The notes under the pieces are model-generated. The model was not told the DNA's origin and did no database searches. It was given only the letters and a program-made list of their open reading frames with translations. This document shows positions 7,194-37,137 of a DNA stretch of 42,325 nt, in pieces. The stretch is from the IMG/VR virus record IMGVR_UViG_3300037043_000053, positions 1 to 42,325 of that record. The stretch is one strand, 5' to 3'. How positions within the stretch are numbered: the stretch's first letter is position 1; the number at the start of each line of letters is the position of its first letter. The DNA is from a virus (Duplodnaviria; Caudoviricetes). A program made the translations under genes and the position numbers.

Positions 7194-8504
7194 ATGGCCA
7201 CCCCGACCGACGACAGCTACAGCTGCCCGTTGAATGGGGTGGTGTCGGCTGGGCGCTATCGTGTCTGGTCTTCCGCTAATTCGCCAGGAAGCTACGACTC
7301 AGGGTCGGATACATGGGTTCCGGGGCGCGGCGCTGATGGCCGTGTATCGTGGGCAAGCTGGTCGCTCGTTCCTGCTGGTCGATGGGTCAATGTCGCCGGC
7401 ACGCGAATGGATGCGCTTGATTCAGTGGTCAAGGCCGCGCTGCCAGGGTGGTCCGATAGGGGGAATTCTGGATGGGACGGTGTGACCGGCGGCTGGTCTG
7501 GCATGGCGCTGGACAAGTACACGGACCGACCAAGAGCGTGGTTACTCGGCGGCGGTCATCACGACTCCAGCAACAACGGATTGTATCGGTTTGATGTTCC
7601 CCGGATGGGATGGTCTGTCGAGATCATGCCGACGGACCTGACCGGGTGCGACGCTCGATATACAACAGCAGGTACGGCGACTTTTACAAACTACCCTGCG
7701 GCAAATGATTATAAGATCGCCAATCCTAACCAGTCGCTGATCTACCACGACGAGCTTTACTCGTTTGCCGAAAACGCTCCGACAGCCCGGCACACTTACG
7801 CATCGCTTGTTTTTGACCCTGTAAACAACCGCGTGATAACCGGCGCTGGTCGCCTGTGGATGGCTGACCTGATTTCCGGTTCCTGGTCAAAGCGCACGCC
7901 GTTTGACACCAACGTCGGCAGTTATGCACCACTGACTGGGTACGCGCTCGAAAATACCGCTGGGTTCCTGCATGGCCGAAAATACATAATCCTCGGTTCC
8001 CAAGCCGGGAACATGGCGCAGGCGTGGGAATACGACATCGACGCCGCGACATTCGCGTGGCGCACCGGCATGGCTGGCGGCTACCTGCTAGCTAAGTCGC
8101 AGTCGTGCCAGTGGGGCGACACGGTGTGGCTCTTCCACCCGTCGTTCGAAGGAACGAATCGCTTTGTCACGATGAATCTTGAGACTAAAACCAAGGTTGA
8201 ATCGACGCTATCGGCCAGCGATGCGCTAACAGATGTTATGCGCGTTGATTACGACGGTGGCGGAATGACGTATCTGCCGACCATCGGCAAGCTGCTGTTG
8301 GCGACGAAATCGGTCAGCTTGCAAAAGCTGCGGCTGTATCTGATTGATCCTGTTTCTCTGACCATTGATTTTTACACGCCGCAAGGGAATTGGCCGTCGT
8401 CTCCGCACGACATTGTGGAATCAAAAATTCAGTGGGTGCCGCAGATCAGCGCGGTGATGTACATCAATAAAGCGTCCGACGACGTTCGCATTCTGAGGCT
8501 CTAA
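7194..8504 (+). CDS. Putative beta-propeller/Kelch-like virion or receptor-binding protein
   Basis: 436 aa; GGGH.DS, ARHTY, W.YD motifs and Trp/Gly-rich repeats; visibly more AT-rich than flanks. Confidence 0.6.
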   Translation: MATPTDDSYSCPLNGVVSAGRYRVWSSANSPGSYDSGSDTWVPGRGADGRVSWASWSLVPAGRWVNVAGTRMDALDSVVKAALPGWSDRGNSGWDGVTGGWSGMALDKYTDRPRAWLLGGGHHDSSNNGLYRFDVPRMGWSVEIMPTDLTGCDARYTTAGTATFTNYPAANDYKIANPNQSLIYHDELYSFAENAPTARHTYASLVFDPVNNRVITGAGRLWMADLISGSWSKRTPFDTNVGSYAPLTGYALENTAGFLHGRKYIILGSQAGNMAQAWEYDIDAATFAWRTGMAGGYLLAKSQSCQWGDTVWLFHPSFEGTNRFVTMNLETKTKVESTLSASDALTDVMRVDYDGGGMTYLPTIGKLLLATKSVSLQKLRLYLIDPVSLTIDFYTPQGNWPSSPHDIVESKIQWVPQISAVMYINKASDDVRILRL

Positions 8505-9848
8505 ATGGCAAATATTTACGTTAAATCCGGTGCTGGTAATGCTAGCCCGTTCGCTAGCTGGGCAAACGGGGCAATCACTCTGGCCGGCGCTGCTGGAGTG
8601 GATGCTGCAGGAGACACGATTTACGTTAGCCAGGCCCATGCGGAATCAAGCGCGTCGGCACAGACTATTGCGCTGGCAGGGACGACGGCCAGCCCGTCGC
8701 GCGTAATCTGCGCCAGCGACGCCGCCGAACCACCGGCAGAAGTGGCAACAGGTGCGATTATCCAGACAACTGGAGCATCGGCAATTATCATTAACGGGTC
8801 AGGGTATTTATACGGCCTTGAACTGATCTGCGGAAGTGGTGGCACGTCAGCCAATATCGTTTGCGGAAATACAGTAGCAGGCTATGAAAATCAGCAATGG
8901 GAAAACTGCACTTTTGAGCTAGGCACGACAGCTACTACGTCGCTCATTATTTCAGGCGCCGGCAACGCTTCCACGTCGAATAAAAACGTATTCAAAAACT
9001 GTACATTTAAGTTCGGGCGCGCGGACTATCAATCGTTAGCCCTCCAAGCATGGACAGAGATTTATGGCGGCGCAGTATATCGGGCAGACTACGGCGGCGT
9101 GGCCGGTCGCGTTTTCACGCCGTTTGGAGGCAGTGGTGAAGGCTGTGGCGGTTTTGTCGATGGCATTGACCTGAGCGGGCTTCTTGGCACGGTAAATATT
9201 TGTCGCTTTCTCGCCGGCACCAGCAACAACGGGCTGTTCACGATCCGCAATTCAAAGCTTCCTGCCGGATGGTCTGGAAAGCTTGTTGATACAGCTATAA
9301 CGCAGGCCGGCATCAAGGCGCAGATGCAGAACTGCACGGCGGGGTCGACTCTGTATCGCCTATGGAATGAGGATGTAGCAGGGTCTGTTCGTGACGAAAA
9401 CACGGTGGTCAGAACCGGCGGCGCGAATGATGGCGCTGCGTACAGTTTCAAGCTGGTCTCGTCTGCGAACTGCTCATATCCGCTGACGCCGCTGGAAACG
9501 CCGGAGTTCTCGCAGTACAACACCATCACCGGCGAAATCACGGAAATTGTCGAAATCGTCACCGACTCTGCCACGCCGTTGAAGGATGACGAAATATGGC
9601 TAGAAGTGTCATATCCCGGCGCGTCCGGCCGAGTGATCGTAACCGATGCGAAAGCTTCCGTCCTCGCCACTGCTGCCGATCAGGCATCTAGCTCTGCTGA
9701 CTGGACGACGACCGGGCTATCGACGCCGCTCAAGCAAAAACTGAGCGTGACATTTACGCCGGGTGCTGCCGGCTGGCTTCATGCCAAGGTCAAGCTTGCA
9801 AAACCATCGACTAATTGTTTCGTTGACCCAAAGATGACGAGATCCTAA
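8505..9848 (+). CDS. Putative beta-helix-like virion accessory protein
   Basis: 447 aa; AGDTIYV motif, repeated NCTF; abuts neighbours. Confidence 0.6.
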   Translation: MANIYVKSGAGNASPFASWANGAITLAGAAGVDAAGDTIYVSQAHAESSASAQTIALAGTTASPSRVICASDAAEPPAEVATGAIIQTTGASAIIINGSGYLYGLELICGSGGTSANIVCGNTVAGYENQQWENCTFELGTTATTSLIISGAGNASTSNKNVFKNCTFKFGRADYQSLALQAWTEIYGGAVYRADYGGVAGRVFTPFGGSGEGCGGFVDGIDLSGLLGTVNICRFLAGTSNNGLFTIRNSKLPAGWSGKLVDTAITQAGIKAQMQNCTAGSTLYRLWNEDVAGSVRDENTVVRTGGANDGAAYSFKLVSSANCSYPLTPLETPEFSQYNTITGEITEIVEIVTDSATPLKDDEIWLEVSYPGASGRVIVTDAKASVLATAADQASSSADWTTTGLSTPLKQKLSVTFTPGAAGWLHAKVKLAKPSTNCFVDPKMTRS

Positions 9849-10349
9849 ATGGCACAGCGTCTAATCCCCGGCGCTGGTTTTGTCGATGACGAAGGTGTTA
9901 CCGGCCAGCGGCTCGTTCCTGGAGTTGGGTTTGTGGATTTCGGCGAAGCGGGTACCGGTGGCGGCACCCTCGACGCCGCCGCATCCGGCACGGCCACCGC
10001 CTCCGGCACGGCCAACGCCTCCTACGATGGCCCCACCATCGCAGATGCCGCCGCCTCGGGCGCGGCCGTCGCCTCGGGCACGGCCAATGCCGAGCTGCAG
10101 ATGCCGACGGTCACGTCCGAGCAGCTGTACGACAACGTCCCCAACCTCCTGGCCAATGAGCCGCTGACCTATGTGGCCGTCTATCACCCGGACACCGGCG
10201 CCCTGGTCGTGCGCAAAACCGGCCTCAGCACCGACGCCACTGGCCGCTATACATTCACCGACCCGGCCCTCTCCCTGGGCGTGAATTATCTGCACGACTG
10301 GCTGACGGTATCCGGCCACCGCCGCATGCCGGTCAAGGCGGCTGCATGA
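9849..10349 (+). CDS. Hypothetical virion protein with internal repeats
   Basis: QRL.PG.GFVD twice; DAAASG.A.ASGTANA twice. Confidence 0.7.
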   Translation: MAQRLIPGAGFVDDEGVTGQRLVPGVGFVDFGEAGTGGGTLDAAASGTATASGTANASYDGPTIADAAASGAAVASGTANAELQMPTVTSEQLYDNVPNLLANEPLTYVAVYHPDTGALVVRKTGLSTDATGRYTFTDPALSLGVNYLHDWLTVSGHRRMPVKAAA

Positions 10350-11665
10350 CCTGGTTGAGCAACCCGGACAGCATCCTGTCCAGCGGCTGGCTGTCGTCCG
10401 CTTACCCCGGCCACGGCATCCTCGGTGCCGACATCCCCACGGATGGCGATGACGGCGGCAGCCCGGTGCTCAACGACAACCCGGCGGCGGACCGCGAGTA
10501 TCGCTGGCAGATCATCACCCTGCCGTCGGCTGGGGTACTCACGCTGCACGAGGATTTGACCTTTGACTACGACGCGGCGGGGGTTACGGCCGGCGTCTAC
10601 AGCTTTACCTATCGGTTGTGGGAAACTGGCCTCGATGCCGGCACGGGCACGGTCACGATCACGGTCGGCGAGGCTGGCACGGTGTTGGATGCCGTCGCCG
10701 CTGGCGCGGCTCTGGCCAGTGGCACTGCCACCGCATCCGCCCAGGTAAGCGCCACCGCCTCGGGTGCTGCGGTCGCCTCGGGATCGGCAACCCCGGCCGC
10801 CATGCTTTCGGCTTCCGCCAGCGGTTCGGCCGTGGTCTCCGGCACCGCTGCGCTATCGGGCGGTGCGGAAGGCGCGCTTTCGGCGTCCGGCCAGGCTCAG
10901 GCATCCGGCACGGCTGGCGCCAGCGCCTCGGTCGCGCTGGCAGGCGTTGGCGTGGCGCTGGCGGGCGGATCGGCTGCGCCCGGCGTCTCCATCCCGCTCT
11001 CGGCGGCTGGCGTGTCCGTGGCCAGCGGCAGCGCAGGCGCCATGGCCACCGTCTCCATCAGCGCCGCCGGGCTTGCCCAGGCGGCGGGCGCTGCCGGCCT
11101 TTCGGCCTCGGTGCTGCTGGCCGGGGCGGGTGCGGCGCAGGCGGCGGGTAATGCCGCGTTGGCGGCTACGCTCAACGCGCTGGCCAGCGGTTCGGCCGTC
11201 GCCTCGGGCACGGCGCAGCTTTCGGGCGGCGCCGAAGGTGATTTATCGGCCAGCGGCCAGTCGGTCGCCAGCGGCGAGGCGGTGCTGTCCGTCATCATCC
11301 AGCTACAGGCGACCGGGTCGGCGCAGGCTGCCGGCGCGGCATCTGGTAGCGCCAGCGCTGCCGGAACCGTCAGTGCCAGTGGCACGGCAGAGTCCGCCGG
11401 TACCGCGCTGCCCGCCGTCACCGTCTCGCTCACCGCTGCCGGCTTCGTGCAGGCCATGGGCGCCGGCCGGCTGGATGTCTCGGTCAGCCTAACGGCACTT
11501 GGCCAGGCCACGGCCGGCGGCTCGGCCAACCTGGGCGAGCTCGTGCTTGTCACTTACACCCGCGCCCCGTCCGGTGCCGGCCCGTCCATCATCCGCGCCG
11601 GCACCAATCGCCCCGCGCAACTGCAAACCAATCGCCCCGCCAACCTCGGCGGCGGGCGTTACTGA
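10346..11665 (+). CDS. Ala/Ser/Gly-rich repeat protein (putative fibre/decoration)
   Basis: N-terminal Ig-like segment (YSFTYRLW) then many ASG.A.ASG.A repeats. Confidence 0.7.
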   Translation: MTWLSNPDSILSSGWLSSAYPGHGILGADIPTDGDDGGSPVLNDNPAADREYRWQIITLPSAGVLTLHEDLTFDYDAAGVTAGVYSFTYRLWETGLDAGTGTVTITVGEAGTVLDAVAAGAALASGTATASAQVSATASGAAVASGSATPAAMLSASASGSAVVSGTAALSGGAEGALSASGQAQASGTAGASASVALAGVGVALAGGSAAPGVSIPLSAAGVSVASGSAGAMATVSISAAGLAQAAGAAGLSASVLLAGAGAAQAAGNAALAATLNALASGSAVASGTAQLSGGAEGDLSASGQSVASGEAVLSVIIQLQATGSAQAAGAASGSASAAGTVSASGTAESAGTALPAVTVSLTAAGFVQAMGAGRLDVSVSLTALGQATAGGSANLGELVLVTYTRAPSGAGPSIIRAGTNRPAQLQTNRPANLGGGRY

Positions 11666-11674
11666 GGACCACGC

Positions 11675-12244
11675 ATGGCCAACAATATCGTCGTCCCGCC
11701 GACAGGCGAGCCGGTGTCGCTTGACGAAGCCAAGGCGCAGTGCTGCATTGACGGCACAGAGTTCGACGCGATCCTGCCCGGCTACATCGCCGCCGCCCGC
11801 CAACTGGCGGAAGCGGAAACCGGGCGGGCGCTGATCACTCAGACCCGCGAGCTGGTGCTCGACGCCTTCCCGCGCGCCTGCGTCCTGCGCCATCCGCCCG
11901 TGCAGTCGCTCGTCTCCGTCACCTACCTGGATGCAGATGGCGTCGAGCGCGTGCTCGATCCGCAAGATGTCATCCTCGACAAATCCAGCGCGCCCGGCTA
12001 CCTGGTGCCCGCTTACGGCAAGGCCTGGCCGGAAACCTACCCGGTGCCCAACGCCGTGCGCGTGCGCTACACCTGCGGCTACGGCAGCGCCGCCGATGTG
12101 CCGCCGGCCATCAAGACCTGGATGCTGCTGGCCATCAATACCCTGTTTGAGCAGCGCGGCACCATGGCCGCCGGCCTTGCCGCGCTGCCGAATCGTTTCT
12201 GGGAAAGCTTCCTGGATGACTACCGCCTGAAAGAGATCGTCTGA
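11675..12244 (+). CDS. Head-tail connector (gp6/phiE125 gp8-like)
   Basis: EPVSLDEAKA, TGRALITQT, AVRVRYTCGYG, VPPAIK motifs. Confidence 0.9.
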   Translation: MANNIVVPPTGEPVSLDEAKAQCCIDGTEFDAILPGYIAAARQLAEAETGRALITQTRELVLDAFPRACVLRHPPVQSLVSVTYLDADGVERVLDPQDVILDKSSAPGYLVPAYGKAWPETYPVPNAVRVRYTCGYGSAADVPPAIKTWMLLAINTLFEQRGTMAAGLAALPNRFWESFLDDYRLKEIV

Positions 12245-12582
12245 TGATCCCCGCCGGCGAGCTGAACCAGCGCCTCACCTTCCAGCAAAAGGTGATCACG
12301 CGCAACGCCATGGGCGAAGAAATCGCCTCGTCCTATGCAGACGTCTGCACCGTCTTCGCCAAGGTCATGCCCCTGCGCGGCAACGCCTTCTTCGCCGCCA
12401 ACCAGCAGCAGCACACCGTCGACGCCCGCTTCCTGATCCGCGACCGCGCCGGCCTGACCACCGACATGCGCCTGCTCTGGCGCGGCCAGCCTTACGACAT
12501 CACCAACCTGATTCCCGGTACAGACAAGTACCGGGGCTTTACCGAGGTGATGGCGATCAACGGGGTGCACGATGGCCGATAA
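12244..12582 (+). CDS. Head closure protein (SPP1 gp16-like)
   Basis: GELNQRLTFQ, IR.R.GLTTDMR, YDI motifs; synteny. Confidence 0.88.
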   Translation: MIPAGELNQRLTFQQKVITRNAMGEEIASSYADVCTVFAKVMPLRGNAFFAANQQQHTVDARFLIRDRAGLTTDMRLLWRGQPYDITNLIPGTDKYRGFTEVMAINGVHDGR

Positions 12583-13108
12583 GGTGACCATCACTGGCCT
12601 TGATGACATGCGTAAGGCGCTGTCTGAGTTGCCCAAGCAGCTTCGCAACAAGGTATTGCTCGGTGCGCTGAGAAAAGCGGCCCGCGTGCCGTTGCAGATC
12701 GCCCGCCAAAGCGTGCCGGTGATGTCTGCTGCTGACGCCGCAAAGAACCCCTACCGCACTGCCGGCCTGTTGAAAAAGAGGCTCACGGTACGGACTTCCC
12801 GCGAATCTCGGCGGGCTGGAAATATCGGCGTGTTCGTCAATATCAAGCCGGCTGACAAGGCCAAGTTCAAGACGACAACCAATAGCTTTCTCGGCGTCAA
12901 GATCAGGCAAAGGTCAATGACCAAGGCCAGCCAGCGAGGGGCTAAGAGTCCATTCGATCCGTTCTATTGGCGCTTTGTTGAGTTCGGTACAAAGAAGATG
13001 AAGGCCAGGCCGTTCATGCAGCCAGCCGCTGATTCTTTGCCCAAGGCGCTGGAAGTCTTCAACGCGGAAGTCATTCCGCAAATCGAAAAGTACAACCGCA
13101 GAAAATGA
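12572..13108 (+). CDS. HK97 gp10-like neck protein
   Basis: ITGLDD, FYWRFVEFGTKKMKARPFMQPA motif. Confidence 0.9.
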   Translation: MADKVTITGLDDMRKALSELPKQLRNKVLLGALRKAARVPLQIARQSVPVMSAADAAKNPYRTAGLLKKRLTVRTSRESRRAGNIGVFVNIKPADKAKFKTTTNSFLGVKIRQRSMTKASQRGAKSPFDPFYWRFVEFGTKKMKARPFMQPAADSLPKALEVFNAEVIPQIEKYNRRK

Positions 13109-24545: not shown

Positions 24546-26159
24546 CTAGCCGCCGAAGTCATCGGCGGCCCGCCGGTCGCCGGTTTTGCGGTCAATCGTC
24601 AGGATACGGCTGCCGCCGCCCTTGCCGACCAGGATCAGGCCGATAGTCTGGCCATCCTCGTCGGGCAAAAACCCCTTGCCGTAAATGGCGATGCGCTCGA
24701 ACGTGTCGCGCACCAGCTTCCGCGCCATCATCCGCGCCTCTTCGTCAAGGCTGGCTACGCCATTGACCAGCGCCCGCCAGGCCTCCGCCTTGGCCGGCGT
24801 GCCCGCCTGGCTGGCTGCCGACAGATCCCGCTCGGCGGCCTTGGCTTCGCTCCTGGCCCTCCCCAGTTCCCCCTCCAGTTCCCGCGCCTTGCGCACAAAA
24901 ACCAGTGGCGTGGCGCCGTCATCGGCCGCCAGTAGTGCCTCAGTAACCCGCTCCAGCTTTTGTTCAAGCTCGGCGACAACGCCACGGGCCACCGCCAGCC
25001 GGGCGCGCATGGGCGCCAGCCGGTCACCGCCCTCAAGCAGGGCGGATAGGTTCATCTGGTCGGCGCAGTAAGTCATGATCGCCCGCTCGATCAGCCCAGC
25101 CTGGCAGCTGGCCGGGTGCGGGCAGGGGCGCTTCGTTGCCTTGCAGGCGCAGTTGATCCGCCGGTTTCCATCCGACAAGGTGCCATCACCCCGCGCCCGG
25201 CTGCTGAGGTTCATCGCCACCATCGGCCCGACACAATAGCCGCAAAAGGCCACGCCAATGCCGGTGATGATGCCCGGTATCCGGCGGATGGAAGCGCCAC
25301 CGGTCGGCGCCCGCTGCGCCATCATCGCCTGCAGCCGGTCAAACTCATCCGTCGTGACGATGGCCGGGTAGTAACCCGGCAGGGCGAACCGTTCGCCATC
25401 GATAACCACCACCCGCGTGCCTGCCAGCGCCGGGTTACGGATCAGACGGTAAATCTGGTTCGAGTTCGGATTGCCATCGGTCATCTGCATCCGCCGCTCA
25501 GCCAGCGTGTCGGCAATGCGCACATGGCCATGGCCGCGCCGGAACATATCGAGTGCCAGGCGAATCGCTGCCGCCCGATCCTCGCGCAACACCCATTCCC
25601 CATCCACAAACGCCAGCCACTGCGGCAGCTTGCCATGTCGCCCACCGCGCCGCTGGCCGGTCGCCAGCCATGTCTCGCAATGCTTGCGCAGCGCCGCCTT
25701 CGCCCGCTGGCTCTTGGTCTCTGATTCCTCGTGGGCGCGGATCATCACCAGCAGCGAATACACCAGATCCATCGGATTGGCCTTGAGGCTCTCCCGGTGG
25801 TACTGCTTGCCGTCAGCCGCCGTCACCACCGTGATGTCGGCGTTGATGATCTGCGCCAGTTGCGCCTGGGCAAGGATCGGCTCGGCGCGCGAAAGGCGAT
25901 CAAGCCCCTCAACAATCAGCACCGACCCCGGCGGAATGCGCCCGGCCTGCACCGCGTCAAGAAACACCCCGAGCGCCCCCTGCTTGACATGCCGGCCATG
26001 AAAAGCGCTCAGCCCTTCATCGCGCATGGTCAGTGATTCATCAAGCGCCATGCCGTGCTCGACGGCCCAGCGCTTGGCATAATCGAGCTGGCGCTCTATG
26101 CTCGTGCCGGCGCGCTGCTTGATGCTGGAAAACCGAATGTAGCTGTAGACCTGTGACAT
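24546..26159 (-). CDS. Large serine recombinase (integrase)
   Basis: YSYIRFSS..Q catalytic Ser, LIVEGLDRLSR, recombinase domain, Cys zinc ribbon and coiled coil. Confidence 0.93.
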   Translation of the reverse strand: MSQVYSYIRFSSIKQRAGTSIERQLDYAKRWAVEHGMALDESLTMRDEGLSAFHGRHVKQGALGVFLDAVQAGRIPPGSVLIVEGLDRLSRAEPILAQAQLAQIINADITVVTAADGKQYHRESLKANPMDLVYSLLVMIRAHEESETKSQRAKAALRKHCETWLATGQRRGGRHGKLPQWLAFVDGEWVLREDRAAAIRLALDMFRRGHGHVRIADTLAERRMQMTDGNPNSNQIYRLIRNPALAGTRVVVIDGERFALPGYYPAIVTTDEFDRLQAMMAQRAPTGGASIRRIPGIITGIGVAFCGYCVGPMVAMNLSSRARGDGTLSDGNRRINCACKATKRPCPHPASCQAGLIERAIMTYCADQMNLSALLEGGDRLAPMRARLAVARGVVAELEQKLERVTEALLAADDGATPLVFVRKARELEGELGRARSEAKAAERDLSAASQAGTPAKAEAWRALVNGVASLDEEARMMARKLVRDTFERIAIYGKGFLPDEDGQTIGLILVGKGGGSRILTIDRKTGDRRAADDFGG

Positions 26160-29599: not shown

Positions 29600-30249
29600 G
29601 CGGCGCTCCTCTGGCGTTTGTTGATCTGGCGGGTGATGGCGCCGCGCAGCTGGATCACGCGGGCTATCTCTTTGGGGTAGTTGTGGCAGGTGTTGCGCCG
29701 CATCAGCTCGGCGCGGGTGATGAGTTCGAGGTTGTCCAGGGCGATGTGCTGCTTGTTGCCATCGCGGAAGGCGACGGCGTGCCCGGGTGGTACGGGGCCA
29801 TGCACGGATTCCCAGAGGATCAGGTGCACAAAGCGCCAGCGGCGCTTGAATGGCATGTCTTCGTTGATCTTGCGCTCCAGGTAGCCTTCCTTGCTCAGTC
29901 GCTCGAAGCCGAGCGGCTTGAAGTTCTCTGCAGCGCGCCCGCTGCGGTGGCCGGGCTTGAACCGGGTCTCGGCAGAGCGCCCGCCGGCCTGATAGTGCGT
30001 ACCCTTGTTCCAGGGCTGCTGACCGGGCTGGAATCGCGTGCTCTCGCCCTTCTTTCGGCTGCCGATGAGTCGGCCGGCAAATTCGCTGGCCAGGTAAATC
30101 GCGCTTTTGTGCAGGCCGAGCTGGCCGGCTTTGGTGTGGACCTGGTTGATGCTCAGGCCAAAGACCGCCGCCAGCCAGGCGGTAGGGATGTGCGGATAGG
30201 TTTCGATCAGCACCTCGGTTTGCGCGGTGCTCCAGGTGTGCCGGCTCAT
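29596..30249 (-). CDS. HNH endonuclease-family protein (HNH_3-like)
   Basis: TRF.PG..PWNKG, VH...WE..HGPVP.GH...F.DGN...NL motifs. Confidence 0.85.
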   Translation of the reverse strand: MSRHTWSTAQTEVLIETYPHIPTAWLAAVFGLSINQVHTKAGQLGLHKSAIYLASEFAGRLIGSRKKGESTRFQPGQQPWNKGTHYQAGGRSAETRFKPGHRSGRAAENFKPLGFERLSKEGYLERKINEDMPFKRRWRFVHLILWESVHGPVPPGHAVAFRDGNKQHIALDNLELITRAELMRRNTCHNYPKEIARVIQLRGAITRQINKRQRSAA

Positions 30250-30767
30250 GACTGCAACACCTCCAGAAATCGCTGCATGAACAGGCTTTCGGCGTGGTTG
30301 TAGTTGACGGCGCTAAGGCGCTTTTCCATGGGGCGCACGCCGTGCAGCACGGGCCAGTCGGTGGCGTCGTCGGGCATCAGGTCGCGGCGCTCGGTGGCGA
30401 GCATGATGCGATCGGCCTCGCCGACTGCGGCGCTCTGCAGCGCCGGCAGGCCGAAACGGTCGCAGATAGCGCCTTGCACCCGGGCTTCGATCATCCGGTA
30501 ATCCGGTAGCAGCTGCTTGAGCGGCCGGGGAATGTCCTTGATGTAGGCCTCGCTGGCGTCGTGCATCAGTGCTTCCATGGCGAATTCGGCATCGACGATC
30601 TGGCTGGCCAGTACGCTGTGCTGCGCCACGCTGTAGAAGTAGCGCGTCTGGCCGGCAAAGCGCGCCTCGCGGGAAAGCCCTTTGACGATGTCGACGACGT
30701 CGATCATGTCCGGCTGCGGGTCAATGAGGTCGAAGTGCTTGCCGGTGTAGGTCAGTAGCCAGCTCAT
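30246..30767 (-). CDS. HD-domain phosphohydrolase (YfdR-like 5'-deoxynucleotidase)
   Basis: RFAG, YSVAQHS, LMHDASEAY..DIP.PLK, AD..MLATE.RDL motifs. Confidence 0.88.
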   Translation of the reverse strand: MSWLLTYTGKHFDLIDPQPDMIDVVDIVKGLSREARFAGQTRYFYSVAQHSVLASQIVDAEFAMEALMHDASEAYIKDIPRPLKQLLPDYRMIEARVQGAICDRFGLPALQSAAVGEADRIMLATERRDLMPDDATDWPVLHGVRPMEKRLSAVNYNHAESLFMQRFLEVLQS

Positions 30768-31099
30768 GCGTCGCCCCGGGTAAAGCGCACCGGAAGGCCA
30801 TTGCGGGCCGGTGCGTGACGAACGATCTGTCCGGCGGCCATGAGGACAACCAGATGCATCTGCAAGGCGCGGCGGCACATGTTGATTTCGTCGTCGGCGA
30901 GCAAAAAATAGGTGTCGATCTCGCCCCATTCGTCGATCAGGTCAAGGATGCGCTTGCGCACGCGCTGGCCTTTGGTCAGGCCATCGCCATTCACCGTCCA
31001 GCGGTTTTCGGTCTTCTGCTTGCCATCGATGTAAATGCGCGTCTGGCCTTGCATGGCCGGCGGCTGGCACAGCCCGAGGGTGATGGCGACGGTGTTCAT
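30764..31099 (-). CDS. Hypothetical protein, possible winged-helix C-terminus
   Basis: ATGA-coupled on both sides. Confidence 0.6.
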   Translation of the reverse strand: MNTVAITLGLCQPPAMQGQTRIYIDGKQKTENRWTVNGDGLTKGQRVRKRILDLIDEWGEIDTYFLLADDEINMCRRALQMHLVVLMAAGQIVRHAPARNGLPVRFTRGDA

Positions 31100-31968
31100 G
31101 CGGCGCTCCCGGCCGGGATCGTCAGCCACTGAAAGCCGTCATGCTGATCAAACGCCGCTGCCTCTTCGCGCGTTACGCGGAACCCGGCGGCGTGTTTGTG
31201 TCCACCACCGCCGAAGGCCTCGGCGATGAGGGCGACGTCGGCGCCGTCGGGGGCCGAGCGCAGCGAGAAGCGCCGGCCGTCTTCGTCGTCGTAGTAGGTG
31301 CCGGCAAAGGGGTTGCCCTTGGCCAGCTCGCCGCCGACATCGCTGGCGTACATCCACGGCACATTGGCGACGGGTACCGGCACTGAGCCGAAGTGCACCC
31401 AGCGGGTGGCGTGGTCCATCAGTGCTGCTACATCGGCCGCATGCTTGCGCAGCAGGGTACGGCCTTCGCGCTCCAGATCGAGCAGCGGGCGCTGCATCAG
31501 TTGGTCCCAGGTGGCAAAGTCCATCGGGTAGGAAAAGACGGCGGCGATGATCTCGCGCGTCATCGGCAGTTTGAAGCGCCACAGGTCTCGGTCCTGGATG
31601 TGATCAAAGAGCAGGGGAGGCGATTCGCCGGTGAAGAAGGACTGCCAGGTGAGCATGGCGCCGGACTGCTCCATGTCGAAGACGGTGATGGCCTTGGCCG
31701 GCAAGTCCTTGAGATCGTCCGCTGCGGTCTTGTGGTGATCGATGACCAGCACGCGGCGGGCCTGCTCGATCAGCCGCAGCATGACCGGGCGCTTGTAGGA
31801 GAAGTCGACGATGATGACCTCACGGTCGGTGACGTCCGGCGGGTCTTCGCCGTAGATGCCGGGGTGCATGTCAACCTTGCCCAGGTAGAAGTAGCGCACG
31901 GCCCAGGCGGCAGCGAAGCCGTCGGTGCAGGCGTGGTGATAGATGCAGAGGGGTTGGGTGGTGCTCAT
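31096..31968 (-). CDS. DHH/DHHA1-family phosphoesterase
   Basis: YH..C.DG, VDFS, IDHH, D.DLW, FSLRS, GGGGH..AAGF motifs. Confidence 0.9.
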   Translation of the reverse strand: MSTTQPLCIYHHACTDGFAAAWAVRYFYLGKVDMHPGIYGEDPPDVTDREVIIVDFSYKRPVMLRLIEQARRVLVIDHHKTAADDLKDLPAKAITVFDMEQSGAMLTWQSFFTGESPPLLFDHIQDRDLWRFKLPMTREIIAAVFSYPMDFATWDQLMQRPLLDLEREGRTLLRKHAADVAALMDHATRWVHFGSVPVPVANVPWMYASDVGGELAKGNPFAGTYYDDEDGRRFSLRSAPDGADVALIAEAFGGGGHKHAAGFRVTREEAAAFDQHDGFQWLTIPAGSAA

Positions 31969-33317
31969 GTGGATCTCCGGTAGGTCTTGGTGAGGTCGGC
32001 TTTGATGCTGTGGCCGCGCTTGCGCAGGACATTGGCCAGGCGGGCGCGGTCGTGGTGGCCATGGGTGGTCTGGCGCAGCAGGCCGAAGTAGCTGTTGCCG
32101 GTTTCGAACAGGTCTTCAGCCGGCACGGTACGCAGGCGGCTGATGGCATCGTTGTAGGTGCGCCGGCGCAGGTTTCTGCGCCATGGCTTGATGACCTGGC
32201 CAACGAAATCGATGCCGCGCGCCACCGGTTGCAGAATGGTCTTGCTCGGGTTGAGCCGTGCGGCCAGCTTCTCAGCTAGCAGCTGCTCGATGCTCACCCG
32301 CGCTTCGTTGAGCCACTGAGCCGACTCGTGCAGCAGCACGAAGTCGTCGACGTAGCGGATGTAGTGACGGGCGCGCAGGACGTGCTTGGCGTACTGGTCG
32401 AGCACGTCGAGATAGACGTTGGCGAAGAACTGGCTGCTCAGGTTGCCGATGGGCAAGCCGAGGTGCGCCGGGTGGCTGGTCAGGCGCTTGTGCTGCGGCA
32501 CGCGCTGCATCGCTGCCGGGTCGCCGCGCAGGTCGAAGTCCTGGCGCGGATCGTGAAACAGGATGGTCTCGGCCAGCGCCAGCCAGAAGGGTTCATGGAT
32601 CTGGCGGGCGAGCAGCTCGCGGACGATGCGCTTGTCGATGCTGACGAAGAAGTTGGCCAGGTCGCACTTGAGGTAGTGCGCCGGCCGGCTCCAGTTCTGG
32701 GTGATGCTGCGGACCTTCGATTCCAGGCGCTCGGCAGCGTACAGCGTGCCGCGCCCCGGAATGCAGGCGCAACTGTCGGCGATGAAGCGGGCGTAGAAGC
32801 GCGGGGCAATGCGGTTGTGCAGGACGTGGTGCACGATGCGGTCGCGGAAGGTGGCTGCCCAGACCTCGCGTGGCTTCGGTCGGGTGATGGCAAAGCAGAT
32901 GCTGCGGCCGGGCGTGTAGGAGCGGTCCTGCAGCTCGTCGAAGAGTTCCCGGAGGTTGTGCTCGAGGCGCTCTTCGAAGGCCATCGCGCTGGCGCTGTTG
33001 CGCTTGGTGCGCCGGCAGTCGAAGTAGGCCTGGACAAGCTCCGGGAAGGTAAGGTCAGCGGGTGCATTCCAATCTGCGGACGGCCCGAGCGCGGAGCTCG
33101 TTGTTCTTGTGGTTGTTGTTCTGGTTGCCGTTGTTGAAGTTCTGATACCAAGCCCAGCCGGACTCGGACCAATCGTGCTTTCTACGTCGCCCGGCCGAGG
33201 TTTCAGCGGGGTAACTGCGCCAGACCGGACCAGGCTGCTGCCTGCGGTATCCGTGGTGCGCATGGCGGTGGCCTTGTGAGCCAGCGGCACGACCAGATTG
33301 AAAGATCGCTCAGTCAT
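31965..33317 (-). CDS. DGR reverse transcriptase (start uncertain; conserved core begins ~33050)
   Basis: KPRE.WAA.FRDRIVHH, LKCDLANFF.SI, GLPIGNLSSQFFAN.YL, YIRYVDDF, IDFVG motifs; adjacent to TR and avd. Confidence 0.95.
   Translation of the reverse strand: MTERSFNLVVPLAHKATAMRTTDTAGSSLVRSGAVTPLKPRPGDVESTIGPSPAGLGIRTSTTATRTTTTRTTSSALGPSADWNAPADLTFPELVQAYFDCRRTKRNSASAMAFEERLEHNLRELFDELQDRSYTPGRSICFAITRPKPREVWAATFRDRIVHHVLHNRIAPRFYARFIADSCACIPGRGTLYAAERLESKVRSITQNWSRPAHYLKCDLANFFVSIDKRIVRELLARQIHEPFWLALAETILFHDPRQDFDLRGDPAAMQRVPQHKRLTSHPAHLGLPIGNLSSQFFANVYLDVLDQYAKHVLRARHYIRYVDDFVLLHESAQWLNEARVSIEQLLAEKLAARLNPSKTILQPVARGIDFVGQVIKPWRRNLRRRTYNDAISRLRTVPAEDLFETGNSYFGLLRQTTHGHHDRARLANVLRKRGHSIKADLTKTYRRST
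33070..33169 (-). ncRNA. DGR template repeat (TR)
   Basis: AAC-rich (9 AAC codons) near-copy of the two VRs; substitutions only at TR adenines. Confidence 0.95.
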
Positions 33318-33684
33318 GGCGGCCTTGACCTCCATGATGCGGGCGATGTGCGGCGCGGCGCCACCCGTTGGCCTGTTTGCCGATGCTGGTGGTGAGTTCG
33401 ACGGCCTTGGCATAGGCGGCTTTCGAGATAAGCCGCTTGTCCATGGCGAGGCGAATCATCAGCTCTACCACCTGCAGGCGCTCGATTAGCGCAAGCAGGT
33501 GCGGTTCCTTGTCCTGGGCGACGTTGGCACGAAAGATCAGGATGGTGATCCGGATGCAATCGCTGGTGATCTCGCCACCTATCGGCCGCTGGAACGGCCG
33601 CGGCATGTTCTTGGCGAAATCGGTAACGACGTCGATCAGGTCGTAGGCGACCTTGTAGATGGGGAGGCTGGTATGGGTGGCCAT
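33310..33684 (-). CDS. avd: DGR accessory variability determinant (Avd, four-helix bundle)
   Basis: 124 aa basic helical protein, LPIYK.AYDL and IGKQ.NGW motifs; between target and TR. Confidence 0.88.
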   Translation of the reverse strand: MATHTSLPIYKVAYDLIDVVTDFAKNMPRPFQRPIGGEITSDCIRITILIFRANVAQDKEPHLLALIERLQVVELMIRLAMDKRLISKAAYAKAVELTTSIGKQANGWRRAAHRPHHGGQGRHD

Positions 33685-33706
33685 GCTGACTAAATGACTG
33701 AATTAC

Positions 33707-34177
33707 TCAATGACTAATCTGCGGACGGCCCGAGCGCGGAGCTCGTTGAAACTGGTGGCTGGTGCCCTGGAAGCCGCTGTAGAAGCACTGACACCAAGCC
33801 CAGCCGGACTCGGACTCATGCGCTTCGCATGACCAGTAAGCGCGTTCCTCGAATTCACCCTTGAGGTTGGCAAAGAGCAGCGCCTGTTCGCGGCGGGTCG
33901 GGAGGCTGGCGATGTATTCGCCGCCTTGCTTGCCGGCCCATTCCATGGCCTTGTCCCAGGTGATGTCGTCGGCCTGTCCGGGCAACAGGATCAGGTGGTG
34001 ACTCGGCTCGCCGTCCTGGCTGACGATCAGGCCGGCGTAGTGCTCGCCCGGTGCGAGGTCGATCGTTACCTCGGGAAAGTACAGCGCCGACGGCTCCTGT
34101 TGCTTCTCGAAGGCGGCGATCAGGTCGGCCAGCTTGGCGTGCTCGGCCTTGATCGATTCAAGCGTGATGGTGGTCAT
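33707..34177 (-). CDS. DGR target protein 1 (DUF1566/CLec-like), C-terminus frameshifted by a 1-nt insertion in VR
   Basis: W.KAMEWA, LPTR.EQALLFAN, YWS motifs; ends in VR1. Confidence 0.88.
   Translation of the reverse strand: MTTITLESIKAEHAKLADLIAAFEKQQEPSALYFPEVTIDLAPGEHYAGLIVSQDGEPSHHLILLPGQADDITWDKAMEWAGKQGGEYIASLPTRREQALLFANLKGEFEERAYWSCEAHESESGWAWCQCFYSGFQGTSHQFQRAPRSGRPQISH
33716..33815 (-). repeat. Variable repeat VR1
   Basis: 14 substitutions vs TR, all at TR adenines, plus one inserted base (33749-33751). Confidence 0.93.
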
Positions 34178-34201
34178 AGCGTTCTCGAAATTACTGAATG
34201 A

Positions 34202-34561
34202 TTAAATGGGCAATCTGCGGACGGCCCGAGCGCGGAGCTCGCTGCCCTTGCGGTAGTAGCTCTGGTGGCCGTAGCTGAAGTACTGATACCAAGCCCAGCC
34301 GGACTCGGAGTTGTGCGTCTCGTTGCTCCAGTACCAGTCAGCCTTGAACTGGTCGCGGTGGTTCGCCCAGAGCATGGCCTGCTCGATGCGGGTCGGCAGA
34401 TCGCCGCCGATGCTCTTGGCCCATTCCATCTGGGCTTCCCAGGTGGCGTCGTTGTTGTCGCCGGGTAGCAGGATGACGTGATGCACATTGCCCTGCGTGT
34501 CGCCGATGGCTCCGACGTAGATTTCGCCTTCGGCGAGCGGTGGGAGTGGGAGTTGTTGCAT
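34202..34561 (-). CDS. DGR target protein 2 (DUF1566/CLec-like)
   Basis: W..QMEWA..IGGDLPTR.EQ, WYWS; ends AWYQYFSYGHQSYYRKGSELRARAVRR. Confidence 0.92.
   Translation of the reverse strand: MQQLPLPPLAEGEIYVGAIGDTQGNVHHVILLPGDNNDATWEAQMEWAKSIGGDLPTRIEQAMLWANHRDQFKADWYWSNETHNSESGWAWYQYFSYGHQSYYRKGSELRARAVRRLPI
34211..34309 (-). repeat. Variable repeat VR2
   Basis: 11 substitutions vs TR, all at TR adenines. Confidence 0.95.
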
Positions 34562-34607: not shown

Positions 34608-34748
34608 TCATTGCGCGTAGTTGAGCCATGCCAGAACGCCAAAGGAGGCGGAGGCCAGGCTGATGCAAATAGCGGTGAAGAGGCCGAGCATCCGGTCGTT
34701 TTGGTCGGCGATCTCGGCTTGTTGCTGGTCGATGGTTTCGCGGGTCAT
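34608..34748 (-). CDS. Small membrane protein (MTRETIDQQQ...)
   Basis: 46 aa, C-terminal TM; ATGA-coupled to upstream gene. Confidence 0.55.
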   Translation of the reverse strand: MTRETIDQQQAEIADQNDRMLGLFTAICISLASASFGVLAWLNYAQ

Positions 34749-34984
34749 GCAGCGCCCAGGTGGAGGTCAAGCCGGTCGATCAGCTGGCGGCCCTGGCGCT
34801 CCAGGTGGCGCACCTCGGCGCGGGCAATGTCCTGCAGTACCTGCATGCTGGCGCGGCGCAGCGGGTCTCGCACGCAGGCCAGGCACTCCTCGCGGCTGTT
34901 GATGGTGATGGTGAGCGCGTAGAGGCGTAGCTCGATGCTGGCCGCCTGGGCAAGCGTGGCGATGATGAGGGCGAGGGTTTTCAT
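34745..34984 (-). CDS. Hypothetical protein
   Basis: ATGA-coupled in early operon. Confidence 0.65.
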   Translation of the reverse strand: MKTLALIIATLAQAASIELRLYALTITINSREECLACVRDPLRRASMQVLQDIARAEVRHLERQGRQLIDRLDLHLGAA

Positions 34985-35322
34985 GCCTCGTCCTTTGCTT
35001 TCTGGATGGCTTCCTTGGCGGCGACCTTGGTCTCCAGCTCGTCTGCGTCCAGCATCGCTTTCAGCTTGCGGTAGTTTTCAGCGGCGTCGCGCAGGGCATC
35101 GGCCAGGTCTTCCATCTGGTCTGCGGTCAGGTTCAGCCGCAACGAAAACTCGGCTGGGCCTTGTTCGACCTCGAACTTCAGCTCGGAACAAAGATCGAGT
35201 CGGCTGTTGTTGCTGACCCCGGTGAAATGATGGATGGCGGTGAATACCTCGATACGGGCATCCTCAATCGGCACGTAGCGCTTGTTGTAGGTTTCGCCCA
35301 AGATGGTTTCGCGGTTGATCAT
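34981..35322 (-). CDS. Hypothetical protein
   Basis: GAGGAGG RBS; 113 aa. Confidence 0.75.
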   Translation of the reverse strand: MINRETILGETYNKRYVPIEDARIEVFTAIHHFTGVSNNSRLDLCSELKFEVEQGPAEFSLRLNLTADQMEDLADALRDAAENYRKLKAMLDADELETKVAAKEAIQKAKDEA

Positions 35323-35331
35323 GATGCCTCC

Positions 35332-35514
35332 TCAGTGACTGGCAACCCGGCGCAGCAGGCTGAGCGCCTGGCTGGCGTCGGCGCGGGTGCCGATGGTGAT
35401 GACACGGCCGGCGACGCGCCGACATATTTGGTAGCCGCGCCCGGCCGGCAGCAGGAAGCACGTCGTGCCCTGCGCAATGGCGCGGGCTTTGGCGAGTGTT
35501 TCGGTGCGGGTCAT
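35332..35514 (-). CDS. First gene of leftward early operon, hypothetical
   Basis: GGAG RBS before MTRTETLAKAR. Confidence 0.65.
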   Translation of the reverse strand: MTRTETLAKARAIAQGTTCFLLPAGRGYQICRRVAGRVITIGTRADASQALSLLRRVASH

Positions 35515-35541: not shown

Positions 35542-35578
35542 ATTAAACACGTGTTGTTTTATTAAGTCAACACATGGG
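35542..35578 (-). promoter_or_regulatory. pL-like promoter with two operators
   Basis: TTGACT-17-TTTAAT on minus strand; AACACGTGTT (35546-35555) and AACACATGGG (35569-35578). Confidence 0.8.
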
Positions 35579-36653: not shown

Positions 36654-37064
36654 TTACTGGCCGGCGCGCGGAATAGAGTTTTGACTGCTGGCGGCTTGTA
36701 GCAGTTGGCGTTCTTCGGCAAAAGCCAGTACCTCGTTTTGGCGCTCAGGGTTGAGGCTGGCCATGATCTTGACGACGGCCGAGGTTTGCGGCGAGTGAAA
36801 TTCGTGCACTGTGGCGGGTTCGTTGGCTTGCAGTTCCGACGCAGGCCCGGAGTTGCGGTAGGGAGTTTCGTCGCCATAGACCAGCCAAAGAACAGATACG
36901 TGCAACGCGTGGGCAATCTGGGTATCCCATTCTGACCGCTTGCTGTCTCTCTTGATCAGGTTGGACAGTGCCTGTGGCGTCAGCTCAGGGATGGCGTCAT
37001 AGAGCGCCTTGCGCTCCCATCCGAGTTCCTTGAGCCGGTGTTCGATGCGCTTTCCGAGGTTCAT
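36654..37064 (-). CDS. cI: CI-like repressor (XRE HTH, no S24 peptidase domain)
   Basis: LGKRI..RL, IAHALHVSVLWLVYG; divergent from cro; alternative start 37082. Confidence 0.8.
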   Translation of the reverse strand: MNLGKRIEHRLKELGWERKALYDAIPELTPQALSNLIKRDSKRSEWDTQIAHALHVSVLWLVYGDETPYRNSGPASELQANEPATVHEFHSPQTSAVVKIMASLNPERQNEVLAFAEERQLLQAASSQNSIPRAGQ

Positions 37065-37077
37065 GTTGTGATCTTGG

Positions 37078-37137
37078 AACATTTGTTTAGCAGAACCAAC
37101 AACGCGTGTTGACTAACAATCCCCACGTGTTTATTCT
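37078..37137 (+). promoter_or_regulatory. pR-like promoter with three operators
   Basis: TTGACT-17-TATTCT; AACATTTGTT (37078), AACGCGTGTT (37101), CCCACGTGTT (37122). Confidence 0.8.

Follow-up and report, generated by a model that had tools for sequence, protein, structure and literature searches.

The diversity-generating retroelement (DGR) of Bordetella phage BPP-1 diversifies a tail receptor-binding protein, and phage DGRs are nearly always read as tail-protein host-range switches. In the present study, we analysed a DGR with two short targets in IMGVR_UViG_3300037043_000053, a virus record of 42,325 bases which is rated complete and has a lambdoid layout (this whole stretch of DNA is called the window below). 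The cassette is not new; it is a new member of the published Magia-type DGR family, with one of its targets frameshifted. It lies in the early-left arm, and we give a probability of roughly 0.55 to the reading that its targets are produced early and bind variable host proteins inside the cell, for example defence or regulatory components. If this reading is true, targeted hypermutation of tiny early proteins would serve conflict inside the cell.

The closest described system is that of Burkholderia cenocepacia phage Magia (MT701587, genes 44-47 and 57), for which a DGR with the short targets 47 and 57 has been published (PMC7883833). The Magia announcement suggested adaptation or host range without a test and left the early-operon position undiscussed (PMC7883833). 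The window has the Magia-type layout, namely one or more short targets, a target with a helix, avd, the structured RNA RT-15, the template repeat (TR) and the reverse transcriptase (RT) gene in the early-left arm. Cassette, order and early-left position are the same in both phages, and the RT and target A of the window are 70.5% and 56-63% identical to the Magia copies, respectively; Magia differs in its intact frames and in a third, remote target just past the immunity region. In addition, Magia gene 46 (L082, locus 12163-12627), annotated as hypothetical, carries a variable repeat (VR) with 11 A-to-N changes; by its sequence it is a third target beside genes 47 and 57, unnamed in the announcement (PMC7883833).

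The BPP-1 element (mtd-avd-TR-brt) has in common with the window the adenine-specific TR-to-VR mutagenesis, Avd, the RT and a C-terminal VR in a C-type-lectin (CLec) fold. Its target is a tail receptor-binding protein, whereas the window targets are on the early arm, on the opposite strand, and no tail gene holds a VR. The structured RNA RT-10 is placed between TR and RT of BPP-1 in part of Weinberg 2017 (PMC5737381), whereas RT-15 of the window is 5' of the TR. In the same part of that paper RT motifs were speculated to serve DGRs (PMC5737381), and RT-15 can now be linked to the Magia-type family. The window further differs from BPP-1 in that its TR is inside the RT frame and its VR is followed by a motif of 8-bp period and by no stable hairpin.

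The DUF1566-like VR domain is shared with category d/CLec2 of Wu 2018 (DUF1566; exemplar Legionella LdtA), about half of which is short and single-domain according to a section of that paper (PMC5758913). LdtA is a chromosomal surface lipoprotein, whereas the window targets have no lipobox and are phage early genes. Multi-VR DGRs were reported in DiGReF 2012 (Schillinger) from Ralstonia pickettii 12J, Burkholderia thailandensis and B. glumae, and also from Collimonas and R. solanacearum CMR15, in the portions of the paper that treat them (PMC3521204). As in the family of the window, there are two to four paralogous VR targets in Betaproteobacteria, and a class with the TR overlapping the RT is described; those DGRs likely belong to this family, and the same portions give them no phage-operon context (PMC3521204). 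The DGRs of clade 5, for which an antigen-sensing role in multicellular bacteria has been proposed, resemble the window in their predicted cytoplasmic CLec targets, some of them short; they differ in their chromosomal location and their association with MoxR/vWA or STAND effectors (extracts of PMC10907252), none of which was seen near the window cassette. Defence roles have been proposed for cellular DGRs in passages of Dore 2024 (PMC10907252) and Belalov 2023. The main texts of two carrier-phage papers do not mention an RT or DGR; in the parts consulted, neither these papers nor the Magia announcement report virion proteomics. We found no literature on the early-operon position or function of the cassette, with subscription journals mostly uncovered.

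Template, variable repeats and core genes

The cassette is a genuine DGR, with adenine-only differences between TR and VRs, Avd, an RT with a YVDD motif and VRs in CLec folds. Its order, on the minus strand to which all cassette coordinates refer, had been given in the first-pass annotation as target 2 (here target A), target 1 (target B), avd, TR and RT, and the ORF, Pfam and PHROG coordinates bear this out. The TR (33070..33168), which is enclosed by the RT ORF and out of register with it, has 28 adenines in 99 nucleotides and nine in-frame AAC codons. Compared with it, the VR of target A (34211..34309) has 11 A-to-N and no non-A changes, and that of target B (33716..33815) has 14 A-to-N changes and one extra base in the T stretch at 33749-33751. 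By ordinary local alignment, all 25 of the 11 + 14 substitutions fall on TR adenines, as had been counted, for which the chance is about 0.28^25; the earlier count for target B was right in its 14 adenine-site changes and missed the one-base insertion and the frameshift. The figure of about 15^9 variants per target is correct as arithmetic and is theoretical only. It also holds that the tail genes have no VR copy, because the invariant 3' end of the repeat was found in the window at the three DGR sites only (three mismatches or fewer; shuffle mean 0.13).

The avd gene (33310..33684) matches Pfam bAvd with 40.6 bits (cut-off 40) and PHROG 3206, and its 46.4 with NCBIfam DivGenRetAVD is under the cut-off of 80. 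RT-15 (33166..33348; Rfam RF03018, 171 bits) is directly 5' of the TR and ends where the TR begins, and all 14 relatives scanned have it there too. The DGR reverse transcriptase (31965..33263; PHROG 1423, RVT_1) likely has 432 aa, with the expected YVDD at residue 304. Of 67 distinct TRs, 66 have an RT frame that is open across RT-15 and TR, and only 14 are followed by a start codon; the Magia RT is annotated from the Met equivalent to ATG 33263. Since the frame is open through the TR and post-TR starts are few, the RT likely begins at ATG 33263. The RT N-terminus (33263-33062) is apparently translated across RT-15 and TR in a shifted frame, which gives a Thr-rich segment.

An AT-rich triple repeat with an 8-bp period was found by motif search just 3' of the target A VR (34189..34208), with a second copy behind the target B VR (33693..33712); these are its two sites in the window. 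In the family it stands behind 133 of 155 anchorable VRs and 0 of 66 TRs, with a shuffle maximum of 5. This motif is a candidate homing signal that may mark recipient VRs in the manner of an initiation of mutagenic homing (IMH) site, and it is unlike that of BPP-1. A stable hairpin behind the VR was looked for by folding, which gave none.

Target proteins and their variation in the family

Target A (34202..34561, 119 aa) is an intact, stand-alone C-type-lectin domain (Lcl_C/DUF1566-like) by Pfam and AlphaFold2. Its score with Pfam Lcl_C is 27.6 bits, under the gathering cut-off of 34.9, and its predicted fold has a predicted local distance difference test (pLDDT) value of 95.8 (AlphaFold2, 80-sequence alignment). 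The best solved match of the model is the C-terminal domain (CTD) of Legionella Lcl (Z 13.3, root-mean-square deviation 3.5, 110 aligned), followed by Bdellovibrio Bd2740 (Z 12.9) and then many C-type lectins; a sequence search of the PDB returned the Lcl CTD as sole match, and the ESM Atlas gave unnamed or DUF1566 clusters only. For the DUF1566/CLec assignment that had been suggested, the outcome is a predicted CLec fold closest to the Lcl CTD and a sub-threshold Pfam score. With its own diversifier, this 119-aa single-domain scaffold is a candidate evolvable binder. Target B (33707..34177, 156 aa) has an N-terminal helix and a CLec domain and is frameshifted in the VR (alignment; fold based on L025); the intact relative in locus L025 is predicted to have the same domain as target A and a helix at residues 6-26. 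The two targets are paralogues, as had been stated, with 53% identity over 97 aa. A heterodimer of targets A and B (both from L025, with alignments) scored 0.18 against a mark of 0.32 and was counted neither way.

Clustered at 90%, the relatives of target A number 1,904. We examined 99 sequences (98 loci and the window), of which 81 have avd beside RT and the other 18 were dropped; the VR set comprises 190 VRs, 173 of them distinct, from 75 loci. The loci were selected by similarity with flanks of 8-10 kb and are no census, and one spurious 27-aa match (L101) was left uncounted. Most loci have two to four paralogous targets in a fixed order. Among phage RTs, identity is 61-71% within the family and 37.5% or less for the next ones. 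The 168 complete targets are acidic and have 114-237 aa; none has a lipobox, and a crude score flags the N-terminus of one as hydrophobic. In 66 scanned of 70 longer relatives there were no fibre, Ig or collagen Pfam domains, and the extra domains were Lar (two), DUF551, WDGH, a single rotamase and a single peroxidase. Longer relatives with tandem CLec-CLec were set aside as evidence of a complex, as some resemble read-through after a frameshift or a lost stop.

Across the family, changes from the TR were counted at 2,126 of 4,935 A sites and at 49 of 11,585 non-A sites, the aligner being one that allows mismatches at A. Phages QDWS and zrk29-1 (an unverified record) have 14 differences in 6,086 bases, all within one VR, and 13 in 2,354 bases, all in the remote VR. 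Similarly, E192a and PL1 have 29 differences in 3,580 bases, all in two VRs, and L044 and L059 have 21 in VRs and one outside. Since near-identical phage pairs differ almost solely inside VRs, comparison indicates that the Magia-type DGR family is active. The first-pass annotation had named VRs invariant across relatives as a refutation of its reading; between near-identical phages they vary.

The target scaffolds are under purifying selection by their ratio of non-synonymous to synonymous substitution rates (dN/dS), with medians over non-independent pairs of 0.32 for A-type and 0.24 for B-type targets, beside 0.24 for avd and 0.17 for RT, and the target proteins therefore matter. In the scaffolds of the 173 targets we detected no frameshift. 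The target A VR has Tyr or Ser at seven of nine positions, equalled or exceeded by 2 of 161 VRs, itself included, and this richness had been taken for a selected binding surface. In family VRs, 1,390 AAY codons gave Tyr in 280 cases, Asp in 210 and Ser in 176; the unselected output of the BPP-1 RT, in the data given in part of PMC12875486, has Tyr 14%, Ser 12% and Asp 10%. Because unselected AAC mutagenesis favours Tyr, Ser and Asp, as does the family spectrum, the richness is largely RT bias, is no evidence of selection and makes a weak argument for a selected surface. A purge of stop codons was uninformative as a selection test, as AAG gave only GAG or GTG, in 8 of 74 cases. The adenines of AAC were strongly interdependent in family VRs (TGC 14 vs 93 expected, TCC 3 vs 26, CTC 83 vs 24), and the A of CAG was almost fixed (384 of 389 unchanged).

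The frameshift in target B replaces the final strand, in which 46 intact relatives show no residue change, and it likely inactivates the protein. Sequencing error is an unlikely cause, because the allele is identical in contigs of groundwater runs X1 and X2 (both possibly the source of this DNA) and the family frameshifts are concentrated in the VR tract, with seven in about 8.3 kb against one in 104 kb of avd and RT. Five of the 173 VRs have in-frame indels, and an eighth flagged frameshift proved to be an in-frame event cut by the analysis window. Frameshifting VR indels are already known in DGRs, as one section of PMC5758913 reports.

Early-left position and possible function of the targets

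By Pfam and PHROG, the head, tail and lysis genes are on the plus strand, followed by the integrase, the minus-strand early-left arm, cI, cro and primase; the tail is lambda-like in its PHROG annotation. A cI-like repressor gene (36654..37082, minus; Pfam Phage_CI_repr, PHROG 4) lies beside a pR-like promoter/operator before cro (37106..37133, plus), found by promoter consensus scan and composite motif. A pL-like promoter (35544..35573, minus) has an operator-like motif in common with the pR-like site and -35/-10 elements assigned by eye; the consensus scan lists the pR-like site and not the pL-like one. The composite pattern, which was derived from these same two sites, occurs at these two only and in none of 100 shuffles. 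The operator 8-mer by itself was not enriched (7 sites vs 5.45 expected), the composite pattern alone being so. From pL to the first target there are four small early ORFs of 60, 113, 79 and 46 aa (34608..35514, minus), of which the first three were scanned and had no match in Pfam, PHROG, NCBIfam or PADLOC. The scan listed no terminator-like site on the minus strand from pL to the RT start, and a serine integrase (24546..26159, minus; Pfam, PHROG) ends the arm.

The same position is seen in relatives. For context, 188 neighbour representatives of about 950 clusters were annotated with PHROGs and marker genes were then used as queries. At least one early-left marker is present in 66 of 75 loci, and the upstream markers keep one orientation throughout (cI on the same strand in 25, recombination genes on the same strand in 30, replication genes on the opposite strand in 33). 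Downstream, integrase/xis is on the same strand in 35 loci and on the opposite one in 5. Virion genes were detected in 5 loci, on the opposite strand in each. The cultured or induced carriers include Magia, PL1, E192a, QDWS, Haboob and Cruim01, and the cassette has the same position in the annotated phages Magia, PL1, QDWS, Haboob and Cruim01, a myophage among them.

The early-left arm of lambda encodes gam, cIII, kil and ral. We infer transcription from pL, action in the cytoplasm and the class of ligand from position, architecture and the usual content of early-left arms; the targets likely act inside the cell because they are encoded among early genes instead of with the tail. The pL/pR motif, the early-left markers, the opposite-strand virion genes, the purifying selection and the VR-confined change all speak for early intracellular binders, as does the presence of one cassette in phages with different tail types (a myophage vs a lambda-like tail). 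The first-pass annotation had reached the same reading, which is partly supported by the early-left position, the pL/pR motif, the orientation in relatives, the stand-alone CLec fold and VRs that differ between near-identical phages; its Tyr/Ser argument is weak. The absence of a signal peptide, which it also used, is uninformative because virion proteins lack one too. Since cultured phage-host pairs carry the cassette (Magia, Haboob, Cruim01), the reading is directly testable.

Once cI repression lifts, a pL transcript would run through the targets, avd, RT-15, TR and RT. Avd and the RT would then copy the TR with errors at adenines and the cDNA would replace a VR, as is established for DGRs, the 8-bp-period motif behind each VR likely marking the recipients. 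Comparison of phages shows that the VRs change while the remaining genome stays constant, and slips at times shift the VR frame, as seen in target B; since the invariant 3' DNA is intact, a later round of mutagenesis could overwrite the frameshift. The rewritten C-terminal tip would bind a host partner (putative ligand), and the effector function would come from the conserved scaffold or the N-terminal helix of target B; alternatively, binding alone might block the partner. As a tentative extension, the DGR of this widespread phage lineage might be an adaptive counter-immunity system, a small nanobody-like library of cytoplasmic binders produced as infection begins and re-randomised each cycle against fast-evolving host defences; in that case, reversible VR frameshifts would switch single binders off and on.

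Several observations weigh against early intracellular binders. The nearest solved folds (Lcl and Bdellovibrio Bd2740) are surface adhesins, and 9 of 75 loci have no context marker, with flanks of only 8-10 kb. The target A VR is identical in contigs from four of four groundwater runs (X1-X4); only contigs were available for these runs and the target B VR is uncovered in X3 and X4, and because contigs drop rare variants the window copy may or may not be active at present. Furthermore, no VR peptide recurs between loci, the residues found in VRs are distributed much as in unselected RT output, frameshifts affect 7 of 173 VRs, one of them in the window, and the avd/RT core is lost or broken in L028, L048, L092 and L095 with the targets retained.

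One alternative, which we hold unlikely, is that lysogens express the targets as sensors or exclusion factors, with superinfecting-phage proteins as their ligands. Early-left arms may carry lysogen-expressed exclusion genes, as in lambda, and cytoplasmic DGR-diversified CLec domains, some short and CLec-only, have been proposed as antigen sensors in part of PMC10907252. Against it, no effector, STAND, MoxR or vWA gene was found among the window genes and the 188 neighbour representatives scanned, and PADLOC on targets and neighbours gave generic RT models only. In addition, the consensus scan lists no internal promoter directly before the targets and one weak site upstream of them (35345-35318), and the upstream promoter has its motif in common with pR.

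The spectrum near unselected RT bias, the lack of convergent VR peptides, the frameshifted VRs and the lost cores would also suit a largely selfish or nearly neutral cassette that rides along in the accessory early region and whose VR variation is rarely selected, and the neighbour genes do vary from phage to phage. This too appears improbable, as the scaffolds are under purifying selection and without detected frameshifts and most loci keep their paralogues in a fixed order. It is quite doubtful that the targets alter host range in the manner of BPP-1, as small adhesins attached to the virion or released. In favour of this, most viral DGR targets of clades 1, 4 and 6 carry a tail-protein annotation in a portion of PMC8144416, the fold matches adhesins and the Magia authors named host range as one possibility (PMC7883833). 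Against it, the targets are on the opposite strand to every detected virion gene, are common to phages with different tail types and have no fibre or anchor domain, and frameshifted alleles persist, the last being a weak point because intact sibling genomes could complement within one burst.

Further observations

The named hosts of relatives are mostly Burkholderiales and Rhodocyclales and the nearest genome match is an Azonexus metagenome-assembled genome (78%), from which we infer a host of this kind for the window phage. Between the head and connector genes, at 7194-11665 (plus), there are three large ORFs (436, 447 and 439 aa) and one of 166 aa, without a PHROG match or a VR; one of them is very Ala/Gly-rich with 18-bp repeats, and they are possibly decoration or adhesion proteins. 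A divergent VR piece in run X3 was rejected as a variant of the window copy; it appears to belong to a related phage, because its flanking changes are in common with another contig. A second, related DGR phage is present in runs X1, X2 and X4 over window positions 33289-34240, with deeper coverage in X1. In L031 (8384-8753, same as L091), avd is split by a frameshift and the VRs look ordinary. In L028, L048, L092 and L095 the intact targets stand beside a deleted or truncated avd/RT, with an HNH gene behind the RT remnant of L095. Directly after the RT of the window, on the minus strand, there are genes for a DHH phosphoesterase (31096-31968) and a YfbR-like nucleotidase (30246-30776), and the same is seen in L002 and L030.

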